From positions 570,001-602,000 of the forward strand of contig NC_011979.1 of NCBI RefSeq assembly GCF_000022265.1: DNA of 32,000 nucleotides, read 5' to 3'. The stretch is from Geotalea daltonii FRC-32. Lineage in GTDB: Bacteria > Desulfobacterota > Desulfuromonadia > Geobacterales > Geobacteraceae. Positions 27,866 to 30,507 of the stretch are shown piece by piece (position 1 is the stretch's first letter; each line of letters starts with the position of its first letter). The position numbers and the translations under genes are program-made. A model generated the notes under the pieces. The model did no database searches and was not told the DNA's origin. It was given only the letters and a program-made list of their open reading frames with translations.

Positions 27866-28057
27866 ATGAACGGATTTGAGATGATAAACGTCTTTATCGA
27901 TACTTCAATTTTTATCAAAATGAATTTTTTCTATGGGCATCCAACATTTGCGGCTCTAATAGAGTCAGTGAAACAAGGTAGAACGCGTATTCTACTGACT
28001 GAGGTGACTGTAGAAGAAGTCAAAGCGAATATCAGAGGAAATTTAACAGAAATTTAA
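27866..28057 (+). pseudogene. N-terminal fragment of a PIN-like (DUF4935/PIN_12-type) protein, truncated by hairpin element copy 1
   Basis: MINVFIDTSIFIKMNFFYGHPTFAALIESVKQGRTRILLTEVTVEEVKANI resembles the start of roughly 300-aa PIN_12 proteins. The reading frame runs into the element's GGAAATTTAACAG and stops there. Confidence 0.4.
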
Positions 28058-28171
28058 CAGTGTCAGGTCTACACCTTGACAGAAAAGGATTAAATTAGTG
28101 TCAAGGTGTAGACCTGACACATATTCTTCCTGCATATTCTTCCTGTTTAGACCTGACACATATTCTTCCTG
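28037..28171. repeat. Hairpin element, copy 1
   Basis: GGAAATTTAACAG+AAATTTAACAG, then a 22-bp perfect stem (28060-28081 / 28099-28120) with a 17-nt loop. The 3' foot is CACATATTCTTCCTG + CATATTCTTCCTG + TAGACCTGACACATATTCTTCCTG. Confidence 0.85.
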
Positions 28172-28537
28172 TTAAACGAAGAGGCTAGAAACCATGCCCG
28201 GATCGCTTTGTTCCACGGCGGTCCAGAGGTACTGAGTCGATTTGCAGTTCAGATGTCAAATACTGCAAATCGAGAGAATCTTGTCGTGCAGATGAACGAA
28301 GTATTTACCTCAGTTGCACAAGAACGTGCCCAGTGGCTCGACCGTCGTATGGCAATGCAAAAAGCAGGAAACAACGGAGAAGTCATTCACATTGAATTTA
28401 GATAGTAATAAGTGCAAATGCCTAACCAGCACTACCATGACCGGGCGAAAAGCTGTCCGTAGGTCAAGCGTCAAACGATTGAATTTATTATTTTCTCCAA
28501 CAATGGTGAAATAGCAAATAGTCGGAGACCTCCATTA

Positions 28538-29410
28538 ATGTCGCACTTGCTTTCTCAAGCGGCTTTACTAGCCCTAGGAATAAACTCATTTGAACCGTAT
28601 ATCTATAGGTTGGAAAAGGACTATGCGGAGGGGAAATTTCTAGATTGGCCGACGATAGTGTTGTCGCATACCGTTCAAGCTACAGCGATCTCATTATTTA
28701 AACTATTGCCCTCTGGGTCACAGTTCGACGAGAACGCCAGAAAGTTCTCTACAAGTTCGATATTCCGAATCGTTCTGAGACTTCTCCCTTTTCGGCATGA
28801 AAGTAAAGAAATTCTTGACAAACGTTCCATAGCCACAATGATTCGTAACATCGTAGATACTCATGATGTTATCGACATGATGGTAAACTGTACCACTGAA
28901 GAATTCAATCTTCACAGAGATATTTTGAGTTATTACATTGCGAATAGGGTTAATGTTATCCAAGAGCACATTGATAAGCCAAAAGCAGAACAATTTTACA
29001 AAACCGCTCAAGCAACTTACTGGAATAGAATTAAAAAATCGCCTCTTTATACTCAATCATTGGATAGGATTAAAAAAGGAGAAACTGTATTATACAAGAG
29101 TAGAAAGGATAGAGTAACTAGCGTATGTGGAGATAGCTCAAATTTTGTAATGGGAATATTGGCTGACATTTCTACATTTGTTCACTCAATTCCGCCTTCA
29201 ATATGGATGAAAGATATGGACAGTTTGTATAGTGATAGCGAAAACAACAGAAACATGGTATCGGTCTGGCTGAAAGTTGGAAACTTCTATTTTGCTAGAG
29301 TTATGTCGATAGTACTTGAACAGACTAACTACGAAACTTCGCCAGAGGCTAAGAGGTTTTTTGATTATAACAGGACAGTATTCGCGGCGTCTGAAGAGGC
29401 TGACAAATGA
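28538..29410 (+). CDS. Hypothetical protein (290 aa, mostly helical by composition)
   Basis: Long ORF in the AT-rich island with RBS GGAGA 9 nt upstream. No recognisable motifs. Confidence 0.55.
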   Translation: MSHLLSQAALLALGINSFEPYIYRLEKDYAEGKFLDWPTIVLSHTVQATAISLFKLLPSGSQFDENARKFSTSSIFRIVLRLLPFRHESKEILDKRSIATMIRNIVDTHDVIDMMVNCTTEEFNLHRDILSYYIANRVNVIQEHIDKPKAEQFYKTAQATYWNRIKKSPLYTQSLDRIKKGETVLYKSRKDRVTSVCGDSSNFVMGILADISTFVHSIPPSIWMKDMDSLYSDSENNRNMVSVWLKVGNFYFARVMSIVLEQTNYETSPEAKRFFDYNRTVFAASEEADK

Positions 29411-29493
29411 GTTGAGAAAATCAAGACTGCAAACGACAACAAAGCATGGCCGGTCTAAGCTTCGCTCCAGTTGGTCGATAAAAATGATCCCAA

Positions 29494-29630
29494 CCGGAAT
29501 TCCGGGGACACCTTACTACGGAATTCCGGGGACACCTTACTTAATTACCGCTCACCGGAATTCCGGGGACACCTTACTTAATTACCGCTTGACCGGAATT
29601 CCGGGGACACCTTACTTAATTACCGCTTGA
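29494..29630. repeat. Head-to-tail tandem array (4 units, period about 37-38 bp; first unit truncated to about 24 bp)
   Basis: The unit is CCGGAATTCCGGGGACACCTTACT(TAATTACCGCTTGA), starting at 29494, 29518, 29555 and 29593. Each unit begins with the 12-bp palindrome CCGGAATTCCGG. There are no unique spacers. Confidence 0.9.
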
Positions 29631-29687
29631 CTTATCAGAAGCATAAAATTAATTTCTGCACATGGCACGTATCGCTCGCGTAATAGG

Positions 29688-29785
29688 GGAAATTTAACAG
29701 GGAAATTTAACAGTGTCAGGTCTACACCTTGACAGAAAAGGATTAAATTAGTGTCAAGGTGTAGACCTGACACATATTCTTCCTG
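29688..29785. repeat. Hairpin element, copy 2
   Basis: GGAAATTTAACAG x2 (29688-29713), the same 22-bp stem (29713-29734 / 29752-29773) and a single CACATATTCTTCCTG foot. Confidence 0.85.
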
Positions 29786-30167
29786 TGCATGATGGATATT
29801 CAGGCCGTCTTGAGCAGAAGCCTAGAAAGAGGGCCTAAGTTCCCATAGCGGGAATTCCCCGGGAGAGGGGTCAGAAGGACCATCTATGGGAGCTCCAGAG
29901 GTGTTCCGATTATGCCTAGCCAGGTACACTGGCCGCGAGTCTGGCCCCTAACTCGAATGCACGCTTACAATCTTGCGGGAAGACCTCCTCGCGCCGCTTC
30001 TTCTTGGCCTCCGGATCAAAGGAGGTTGACAGGTATTCCGAATAGTCGCTGAACTGGTAAGTGTCCGTACTTAGCAGGAGATCGCAATTCCCGAAAACCA
30101 GACTCAAGGCCCCTTGAGAGGCAGCGAAGATCTTGTCGTAATTGTAGGTGGTCAAATCTTTTTCAGG
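29786..30167. repeat. 382-bp duplicated segment, copy 1 (partner at 30508-30889)
   Basis: By-eye alignment shows only 3 mismatches between the copies, all in the non-coding part: a/t at 29801/30523, and gt/ac at 29868-29869/30590-30591. Confidence 0.9.
29916..30167 (-). pseudogene. Displaced 3' fragment of the FMN-reductase/flavodoxin-like gene
   Basis: The encoded ...TTYNYDKIFAASQG...ARLAASVPG* is identical to the C-terminus of the intact gene at 30638-31291. It lacks the 5' two-thirds. Confidence 0.85.
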
Positions 30168-30176
30168 AGGAAATCG

Positions 30177-30259
30177 GTGTCAGGCTTGCAACTATGGAAT
30201 TAGCAACTTGCACAATTGCAAGCCTGGCACCACCTTATGCATGGCACCACCTTATGCAT
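30177..30259. repeat. Second-family hairpin element
   Basis: GTGTCAGGCTTGCAA (30177-30191) pairs with TTGCAAGCCTGGCAC (30216-30230) with 1 mismatch and a 24-nt loop. It is followed by GGCACCACCTTATGCAT x2 (30226-30259) and preceded by GGAAATCG. Confidence 0.8.
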
Positions 30260-30367
30260 TTAATTGATTTAGGTGAGACCAAGGGGGCAGCCTTTGACAT
30301 TCTATAGGGAGGAAAGACAATGACAGACAATATAATCGAGGGCTCCAAATTGAAGCAAGATAGCATT

Positions 30368-30507
30368 GGAAATTTAACAGTGTCAGGTCTACACCTTGAC
30401 AGAAAAGGATTAAATTAGTGTCAAGGTGTAGACCTGACACATATTCTTCCTGTAGACCTGACACATATTCTTCCTGCATATTCTTCCTGTGACACATATT
30501 CTTCCTG
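30368..30507. repeat. Hairpin element, copy 3
   Basis: GGAAATTTAACAG x1, the same 22-bp stem (30380-30401 / 30419-30440) and four nested foot copies ending at 30452, 30476, 30489 and 30507. Confidence 0.85.

Follow-up and report, generated by a model that had tools for sequence, protein, structure and literature searches.

Stacked partial end duplications at hairpin elements of Geotalea daltonii FRC-32 and their probable origin from TIRtron ends

We analyzed a 32,000-nt stretch of DNA from Geotalea daltonii FRC-32 (contig NC_011979.1, positions 570,001 to 602,000; called the window in the following, with all coordinates given as window positions), which contains two families of hairpins (F1 and F2) and a repeat array (F3) that carry nested, incomplete tandem copies of their own ends. 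Our best explanation, to which we assign a probability of about 0.7, is that F1, F2 and F3 are ends of TIRtrons, in which the gene of a Y1/HUH transposase (TIRYT) lies between long terminal inverted repeats (TIRs), and that the nested copies at their feet are scars of repeated site-specific break-and-join reactions by the transposase. Judged by their sequences, the three families are members of a known, obscure element type and not a new kind. For the stutter signature of the ends and the map of their breakpoints, the searchable literature yielded no description. The mechanistic steps discussed below are all derived from sequence.

The F1, F2 and F3 elements and their stacked feet

The 22-nt F1 arm, GTGTCAGGTCTACACCTTGACA, occurs six times in the window, each time as part of one of three identical, perfect hairpins of 61 nt and nowhere else, and it found no match in 100 shuffled versions of the window. 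The arms enclose a loop of 17 nt (GAAAAGGATTAAATTAG, also written AAAAGGATTAAA or AAAAGGATTAAATTAG), and DNA folding of the hairpins gave z-scores from -5.5 to -8.3 relative to shuffled sequences. The elements are located as follows (here and below, L-numbers denote compared genome or metagenome loci and P-numbers compared proteins):

28037-28171, + strand: F1 copy 1, with the 5' foot GGAAATTTAACAG plus an 11-nt partial copy (28037-28059), the hairpin (28060-28120) and stacked 3' fragments (28120-28171; the 13-nt unit twice, followed by TT with a 24-nt unit)
29688-29785, + strand: F1 copy 2, with the 5' foot twice (13-nt unit), the hairpin (29713-29773) and a single 3' foot
30368-30507, + strand: F1 copy 3, with a single 5' foot, the hairpin (30380-30440) and four stacked 3' fragments; identical in L146
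30168-30258, + strand: F2, with the foot (A)GGAAATCG, arms at 30176-30191 and 30216-30231, and the 17-nt unit TGGCACCACCTTATGCA twice at 30225-30258
29493-29630, + strand: F3, read as the stacked left TIR of a short-type TIRYT gene, with the unit ACCGGAATTCC-GGGGACAC-CTTACTTAATTACCGCTTG

An earlier, sequence-only reading of this DNA had described the three F1 copies with perfect 22-bp stems and a 17-nt loop, preceded by two, two and one 5' feet and followed by three, one and four 3' feet, and all of these features were found again. The doubled 5' feet consist of an 11-nt unit in copy 1 and a 13-nt unit in copy 2. The 3' units share the common end CATATTCTTCCTG and comprise three in copy 1 (one full, one of 13 nt and one of 24 nt preceded by TT), one in copy 2 and four in copy 3 (full, 24, 13 and 18 nt). 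Tandem Repeats Finder and a repeat finder recovered the 11- and 13-nt 5' units, the 13-, 18- and 24-nt 3' units and the doubled 17-nt unit of F2. The duplications at the 5' side are the mirror image of those at the 3' side, each being a partial copy that runs from the outer end of the element to a variable inner point. At two F1 junctions 2 nt of flanking sequence are included, TT for copy 1 and TG for copy 3, which means that the break on the outside can lie 2 nt further out. The left ends of all three F1 copies lie directly against the 5' fragment of an open reading frame (ORF) on the + strand (71, 8 and 16 codons). The left foot differs from the right foot, so that the whole elements show no target-site duplication. 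F1 is best read as a left TIR, a remnant spacer and a right TIR, which together form a doublet similar to a REPIN.

In F2 the stem is formed by GGTGTCAGGCTTGCAA and TTGCAAGCCTGGCACC with one T/C mismatch and is followed by the two copies of TGGCACCACCTTATGCA; the same architecture with different sequence, including a doubled unit that begins within the 3' arm, had already been recognized from the letters. The mismatch (within 30176-30231) places a T opposite a G on the + strand, which in RNA of that strand would be a G-U pair and on the opposite strand a C-A mismatch; it is a single data point. F3 is a third nested array, absent from the earlier reading, with four copies (25, 36, 38 and 38 nt) that have a common outer 5' start and a variable inner end.

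Relation to terminal inverted repeats of Y1 transposase genes

Di Nocera et al. (2013) described Y1 genes flanked by long TIRs under the name of TIRtrons, with the enzymes termed TIRYT and the motif GGGGWSAS, and reported that the TIRs form moderately abundant families which occur as singles or 'organized as REPs in dimers or clusters' (PMC3733652; REP, repetitive extragenic palindrome). Quentin et al. (2018) placed most TIRYTs in TnpA_Y1 subclass 2.1, the second-largest subclass, which has a C-terminal Bac_DnaA_C/helix-turn-helix (HTH) domain and was present in ~15% of the surveyed strains, and found no REP-like sequences beside subclass 2.1 genes (PMC6006769). In the searchable literature, TIRYTs were mentioned only in these two papers.

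Intact TIRYT homologues are abundant; they are 312-315 aa long, carry the Y1_Tnp domain and in most cases also Bac_DnaA_C. A 256-aa query retrieved thousands of intact proteins. With short queries, namely the C-terminal remnant (66 aa) and an N-terminus of 42 aa, only short fragments were obtained, which is partly a limit of the word-indexed search; fragments of transposase ends are plentiful in the protein database. The protein P0062 contains the HUH motif (NHYH) and the region of the catalytic tyrosine (RYIHLNPVRA). At every intact locus examined (L164-166, L172-175, L178-181), all in other metagenomes, the gene lies between perfect TIRs of 25-31 bp, (A)GGGGTCAGACCTACACATTTGACAAA, the left one 48-74 nt before the ATG and the right one overlapping the stop codon. 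Compared with the TIRs of the intact 315-aa genes, the F1 arm shows ~80% identity. Moreover, a scan found the exact arm at 38 metagenome loci, and in ~17 of them it lies ~70 nt upstream of a Y1 gene fragment with the N-terminus MGRALRIEYPGAFYHATSHGNEQKEVF (MGRALRIEYPGAFYHATSHGNE...), relatives of which are named 'RayT' by JGI (Joint Genome Institute). A fourth F1 copy was found at an unrelated site, L129, in the metagenome that also contains L146 (sample Ga0255338). Together with the three doublets of the window and dimers elsewhere, this copy documents the dispersal of the TIRs. L163 is an intermediate, in which the transposase gene is internally deleted and both TIRs are kept; its ribosome-binding site (RBS) region, AAAAGGATTTTAAAATG, resembles the F1 loop. 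For F2 the link is provided by the locus L082, where a gene with a Y1_Tnp domain (PF01797, 3.9e-15) has two F2-like GTGTCAGG units on each side in inverted orientation; this repeat unit is dispersed in the genome of L082 (L017, L077, L111). Sequence comparison therewith identifies F1 and F2 as homologous to TIRs and arranged as TIR doublets.

We also compared the GGGGWSAS box. F3 contains an exact match (GGGGACAC), F2 fits at 7 of 8 positions (GGTGTCAG) and F1 at 6 of 8 (AGTGTCAG); the close relatives L134, L162 and L164 carry the box GGGGTCAG. The transposases concerned belong to a subclass that is larger than RAYT and, as many contigs with this gene are only ~1.1-1.3 kb long, appears IS-like (insertion sequence) and multi-copy. 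Three nucleotides inside the GGGGTCAG box, the TIRs of L164, L172 and L178 contain CTACACA, for which F1 has CTACACC (28068-28075 and equivalent positions). CTACACA agrees with TNCACA, the core of the DnaA box TT[AT]TNCACA, and might be the site that the Bac_DnaA_C domain reads; the comparison of Quentin et al. covered the GGGGWSAS box only (PMC6006769). A further observation concerns L161 (3001-4000), where a near-full-length TIRYT gene, split by a frameshift (52 + 256 aa), has a degenerate right TIR and is followed by the nested units GCCCCCCTGCTGTTCTTCCCCT, GCCCCCCTGCTGTTCCCCT and GCGGTTCCCCT, whose TTCTTCC..TG end resembles the F1 foot.

A similar layout is shared by a much wider class of repeats. 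We searched one genome per species for the pattern GGAAAT-N(1-8)-GTGTCAGG-N(25-55)-CCTGRCAC and obtained at least 120 genome loci, compared with ~33 expected by chance according to our own estimate. The matches listed span Burkholderiales, Xanthomonadales, Planctomycetota, Acidobacteriota, Nitrospirota, Bacillota and others, often with many per genome. The common start GGAAAT..GTGTCAGG, which had been noticed in F1 and F2 from the window alone, is hence a real motif found across phyla. An additional G, which the pattern does not demand, follows in 127 of the 139 matches listed (GGTGTCAGG); ATTTCC is found within 14 nt on the 3' side in 32 of these 139 (~0.3 expected), and in more than half of them the stem extends well past the 8 bp forced by the pattern. 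The general layout can be written as GGAAAT-n-GGTGTCAGG-stem...loop...stem-CCTGACACC-n-ATTTCC, and the halves of many families are small palindromes in their own right that have TCAGG at the apex, e.g. GGAAATCGGTG-TCAGG-CACCGATTTCC. Clustering of the ORFs at the 120 loci listed revealed no consistent neighbour gene, which indicates that the repeats are dispersed like REPs; a Y1 gene within 8 kb was found only at L082 and L043 among the loci listed. Many dimer hairpins with other loops occur among the compared loci. The flanks of the Burkholderiales copies gave no target-site consensus, an occasional TA being an extension of the TIR, and a literature search for GGTGTCAGG and similar motifs returned primer sequences only. 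Another architecture with the same box was observed at L006, L008, L009, L021, L023, L030, L036, L061 and other loci of Acidobacteriota/Thermoanaerobaculia: GGAAATGCAGGTGTCAGG is followed by three to four tandem octamers (GTGYCAGG / TATCAGG), a GC-rich loop and mirror-image octamers, with additional solitary copies of AGGTGTCAGG outside and dozens of such loci per genome.

REPIN-RAYT systems (Bertels & Rainey 2011; Nunvar 2010; Ton-Hoang / Corneloup 2021) differ from the elements described here in that F1, F2 and F3 have no GTAG at the foot and GGTGTCAGG as the conserved box, in that the unit is a long TIR instead of a short REP and the transposase is of a different, larger subclass, and in that REPIN clusters are tandems of whole units and not nested end fragments. 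They are similar in that F1 is a hairpin-forming, non-autonomous doublet of a repeat that flanks a Y1 gene (Bertels & Rainey 2011, PMC3116915; PMC8266576), that the RAYT family cuts single-stranded DNA beside a hairpin and can rejoin strands, and that tandem clusters including flanks are known. For the L082 protein, the match to REP_Tyr_transpos (NCBIfam NF047646) reached 65.6 bits with a cut-off of 80. With TIRtrons the elements share the link to a Y1/HUH gene that often has a Bac_DnaA_C/HTH tail, long TIRs, dispersed copies and, in F3, an exact GGGGWSAS box; the window differs in that it contains gene-less doublets and transposase remnants only, and in that F1 and F2 carry GTGTCAGG instead of a strict GGGGWSAS together with an outer GGAA(AT) box. 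Neither of the two TIRtron papers mentions stacked partial end duplications or a breakpoint hot spot (PMC3733652, PMC6006769). IS200/IS605 elements and their palindrome-associated derivatives (PATEs) are comparable in HUH Y1 chemistry, hairpin ends, the lack of target duplication and the existence of miniature non-coding derivatives. Their ends, however, are dissimilar subterminal hairpins on one strand, whereas the TIRtron ends studied here are inverted repeats; their TnpA is ~130-150 aa long without a C-terminal HTH, and the L082 protein scored 20.7 bits against NCBIfam transpos_IS200 (cut-off 55). Rolling-circle Rep or IS91-type systems resemble our elements in that the commonest inner breakpoint lies at the apex of a palindrome and that the segments of L106 and L120 are as nicking, priming and religation would give. 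No Rep or IS91-type (Y2) protein is present here, and the analogy would be mechanistic only. The sequence-only reading had proposed an HUH/Y1 transposase that acts on REPIN- or PATE-like elements. The enzyme type agrees with the TIR homology, the ~17 contigs and L082, and the family is TIRYT/TIRtron and neither a GTAG-type REP/RAYT nor an IS200/IS605 PATE.

Breakpoints of the stacked copies and their possible origin

Next, we considered the foot duplications as a property of the whole class. Stacks were counted as non-periodic perfect tandem duplications with a period of at least 9 nt, with a periodicity filter applied to the hairpin control. They adjoin 22 of the 335 hairpin sides of the class compared with 4 of 440 sides of other perfect hairpins at the same loci (p=2e-5), and two of these four control positives still belong to the class. 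Among random windows, stacks were present in 44 of 7999 (p=4e-15). They were found in unrelated taxa (L014, L027, L040, L064, L078, L085, L109, L117, L118, L134, L135, L160), and in three assemblies (L164-166) an intact TIRtron has TGACCCCTCCCATGTG twice after its right TIR.

For the comparison of breakpoints all copies were read on the strand 5'-outer-GGAA..-GGTGTCAGG-inner-3', with the box positions numbered G1G2T3G4T5C6A7G8G9. The partial copies start 0-4 nt outside the GGAA box and run inward to preferred points. Some end just before the box (L014, L078 and the 13-nt units of F1), and the commonest inner end is GGTGTC/A/G|G, i.e. after C6 (L064, L085, L117), after A7 (L027, L118, L134, L164, the 18-nt unit of F1 and both ends of F2) or after G8 (L029, L055, L147). 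In L106 and L120 the duplicated segment instead starts right after C6. The position C6-G8 is the apex of the small palindrome within the TIR, and A7|G8 reads as CC|TGAC on the complementary strand, a C|T step. F1-type TIRs (also denoted GTGTCAGGTCTACAC-type) have a further inner site, GGTG|TAGACC, which recurs in copies 1 and 3 of the window and in L135 and L160; L129 has a 4-nt deletion (GACC) in the same stretch of the 3' arm, and this deletion has its right edge where the 18-nt unit starts. Microhomology at the junctions amounts to 0-2 nt, which is about chance level.

The stacks also differ between closely related sequences. The right flanks of F1 copies 2 and 3 are 99% identical over more than 300 nt (29786-30167 corresponds to 30508-30889), with one and four 3' foot units, respectively, as had been noticed in the sequence-only reading. 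L146, from an independent metagenome, is the locus of window copy 3 with 97.5-99% identity, and it repeats the four-unit foot base for base. At F2, L146 has five stacked partial copies at the left end (..GAATTAG, ..GGCTTG, ..GTCAG) and one unit at the right end, compared with one and two in the window. Taken together, the stacks are specific to the class, recur at defined positions, are nearly free of microhomology and are polymorphic between strains.

If the transposase makes these breaks, as we infer, the following steps can be proposed. The gene-less doublets F1 and F2 fold into a long hairpin in single-stranded DNA and would presumably be mobilised in trans. Each partial copy would extend from the outer terminus of the TIR inward to a preferred inner site, and the copies pile up on the outside of the complete element in a symmetrical way, left and right. 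Enzymes of the HUH Y1 type cleave single-stranded DNA, stay covalently attached to the 5' end and can transfer this end to a different 3'-OH. For RAYTs, cleavage at C|T or CA steps is known on the 5' or the 3' side of the hairpin (PMC8266576). In a first variant, the outer cut would fall in one sister copy and the inner cut in the other, and cross-joining would duplicate the segment from the inner to the outer site, with a deletion as the reciprocal product. In a second variant, a nick would be followed by strand-displacement resynthesis of a short stretch and religation of the displaced covalent 5' end, which would duplicate a variable length 3' of the nick; this fits L106 and L120 and the longer pieces composed of a left TIR and an N-terminal gene fragment. 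Insertion beside an existing end followed by imprecise excision would be a third possible route. As a tentative and more specific proposal, the stacks might be a natural record of TIRYT catalysis, with nicks at the outer end of the TIR and at the palindrome apex GGTGTCA|GG (CC|TGACACC on the other strand), followed by a strand swap between sisters or by Rep-like resynthesis and religation. Repeated cleavage and religation at the stem foot, suggested from the letters alone, fits the breakpoint statistics and is kept here as a probable cause.

Several points weigh against transposase-made scars on TIRtron ends. F1 and F2 fit GGGGWSAS at only 6-7 of 8 positions, and the window contains no intact TIRYT gene, only the remnants at 29664-29687 and 31863 onward. 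The hairpin control set is small and was drawn from the same loci. At the outer terminus no common cleavage dinucleotide was found across the families, the inner breakpoints vary by 1-3 nt with some sites that are not C|T, and L027 seems to have a fixed inner and a variable outer end. A sub-array (A-B-B) is common to copies 1 and 3, so that some units may be inherited and not independent, and the difference between copies 2 and 3 would also result if units were lost when direct repeats of 13-24 nt recombine in the ordinary way. The searchable literature contained no biochemical data on any TIRYT.

Only one rival account of how the stacks arose is serious, namely that the elements derive from TIRtrons and the duplications came about without cleavage by a transposase, when slippage, template switching or repair at a stable hairpin led to errors of replication. 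The hairpin stems are indeed perfect and highly stable, and existing 13-24-nt direct repeats can expand and contract, which could explain the differences between copies 2 and 3 and between the window and L146. However, first-generation junctions have just 0-2 nt of microhomology, other perfect hairpins at the same loci rarely adjoin stacks (4 of 440 against 22 of 335 sides), the breakpoints recur at one position of the motif across unrelated sequences and phyla, and the outer boundary is constant despite different flanks. We therefore consider hairpin-stimulated replication errors an unlikely source, although one to be taken seriously.

An assembly artefact in a repeat-rich region is very improbable as the cause of the variable copy numbers. 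Short-read Logan contigs do break here and repeats of 13-24 nt are hard to assemble, but the exact reproduction of the copy 3 foot in L146 means that at least this array is no artefact of the window assembly; the assemblies L164, L165 and L166 agree on another stack, and the pattern is common to many isolates and metagenome-assembled genomes. Even less credit can be given to the view that a recombinase outside the HUH class uses the hairpins as its sites, such as the attC-like sites that lie between the gene cassettes of an integron. Small unrelated ORFs do lie between the elements, and in copy 1 the 5' side carries ATTTAAC (RYYYAAC-like) and the 3' junction GTTAAAC (GTTRRRY-like). In copies 2 and 3, however, there is no GTTRRRY box, the stems pair perfectly and have none of the extrahelical bases that characterise attC, the ORFs scanned near the elements included no integrase, and the homology of the arms to the TIRs around Y1 transposase genes largely refutes this reading. 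An attC identity was rejected, since both boxes occur in copy 1 only, apparently by chance, and the stems are perfect. The unrecognised recombination site that had been offered as a second option from the sequence alone is not needed. Ordinary miniature inverted-repeat transposable elements (MITEs) of a DDE transposon, with TG...CA ends and the foot repeats as target-site duplications, can practically be dismissed: the hairpin core starts with TGTCAGG and ends with CCTGACA and the 2-nt flanks at two junctions (TT, TG) resemble a 2-bp target duplication, but the left and right feet differ so that whole-element flanks are not duplicated, there is no associated DDE gene, and the TIRs bracket parent genes of the Y1_Tnp type.

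Rearrangements and neighbouring features

With TIRtron ends as the preferred identity of F1, F2 and F3, we turn to their surroundings in the window, in which the following features were found:

27824-28036, + strand: 5' fragment of a PIN_12 gene, 71 codons, ending at the outer terminus of F1 copy 1
29664-29687, + strand: putative start of a Y1 transposase-like gene, 8 codons (MARIARVI), cut off by F1 copy 2
29786-30167, + strand: duplicate of 30508-30889 (3' untranslated region and last ~83 codons of an FMN_red gene), ending in TTTTTCAGG against the outer terminus of F2
30320-30367, + strand: RBS and start of an ORF (MTDNIIEGSKLKQDSI), which F1 copy 3 truncates after 16 codons; the sequence is also present in L146
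31863-32000, + strand: C-terminal remnant of a short-type Y1 transposase (...TGRPFGSE...RPRKRGR), which continues 60 nt past the window as seen in L001

As proposed before from the sequence, copy 1 truncates a PIN-like gene: the PIN_12 fragment (PF16289) covers only profile positions 1-49 of 172. The ORF that follows copy 1 (28172-28402) gave no PIN match in the profile search, so that copy 1 lies at a rearrangement junction and is not a simple insertion. The copy of F1 with the next 382 bp ends at TTTTTCAGG, a sequence similar to the F1 end TTCTTCCTG, and directly adjoins the outer terminus of F2; L146 does not contain this duplicate block (29786-30167). There, a group II intron (RF02001, RF01998) is truncated at the F2 stack instead, with its 5' part retained. 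The intron piece (1283-1585, up to 1700) scored 148.9 bits for RF02001 and 52.9 bits for RF01998 and contains no reverse transcriptase ORF, so it is a truncated intron that abuts the end of the element. At L149 and L162 a left TIR with 42 and 66 transposase codons, respectively, is joined to unrelated genes. Hence the TIR termini are breakpoints of larger rearrangements, namely of gene truncations, of the 382-bp duplication and, in a related strain, of the intron truncation. The partners at L149 (294-698) and L162 (3001-3201) are sugar epimerase genes in polysaccharide-synthesis loci; the fusion at L149 is a chimeric ORF, and at L162 the fragment stops precisely where the start codon of an intact Epimerase_2 gene begins.

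The ATG of MARIARVI lies 34 nt downstream of the F3 array and its N-terminal pattern resembles that of L082 (MARQLRF...), and with 8 residues its assignment to a Y1 transposase-like gene is weak. For the sequence from 31863 on, which had been taken as a RAYT-like remnant, the Y1 nature was borne out: in the homologue P0007 a Y1 region (NPVRAGLV..WPW) precedes a tail that matches it. The type has to be corrected, as the remnant matches the shorter (~220-aa), L082-like Y1 proteins and is probably cognate to the F3 array; the arms of F1, which is not its probable partner, match the 315-aa DnaA_C type. Both transposase remnants of the window would then be assigned to F3, and perhaps to F2, in preference to F1. 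An Rfam scan of the window gave no match and the group II intron fragment was the sole match in L146, L129 and L164, so the hairpins are not a known RNA family. PADLOC and Pfam searches of the neighbouring small ORFs yielded no defence or mobility function. Just right of the window end, the transposase remnant is followed in L001 (1483-2117) by a gene for a Gp49 (HigB-like) toxin and by a small ORF downstream of it; taken together with the truncation of the PIN gene at 27824, the region looks variable and rich in mobile elements.

Far from these elements, two back-to-back heptamer arrays lie at 12170-12359, between an ORF end at 12165 and an ATG at 12379. The first comprises ~17 copies of GGTGATT/AGTGATT that merge into (GGTGACGGTGAAGC GGTGATT) repeated three to four times, and the second ~9 copies of TCGAACC/TTGAACT. 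Several control hairpins without the TIR box are palindromes of other heptamer or octamer arrays (GGGACTC, TGGAATC, CCGCCTC, TTGGACC, TCCAAAA), as at L011 ~3546, L021 ~715, L024 ~4405, L039 ~2017 and L115 ~5731, and resemble the array at 12170.

The window and its relatives show that TIRs of TIRYT genes give rise to miniature elements of the REPIN-like kind. Such elements are located where genes are truncated and segmental duplications break off, vary from one near-identical strain to another and break short-read assemblies. The reproducible stutter of their ends marks candidate positions of cleavage and joining to the nucleotide and offers a concrete experimental handle on an uncharacterised HUH subclass. 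If the stacks do record TIRYT catalysis, they would provide the first cleavage-site map for the second-largest, functionally unknown Y1 subclass, and TIRYT genes that look domesticated would be active rearrangers, as seen in truncations, read-through copies and strain polymorphism.

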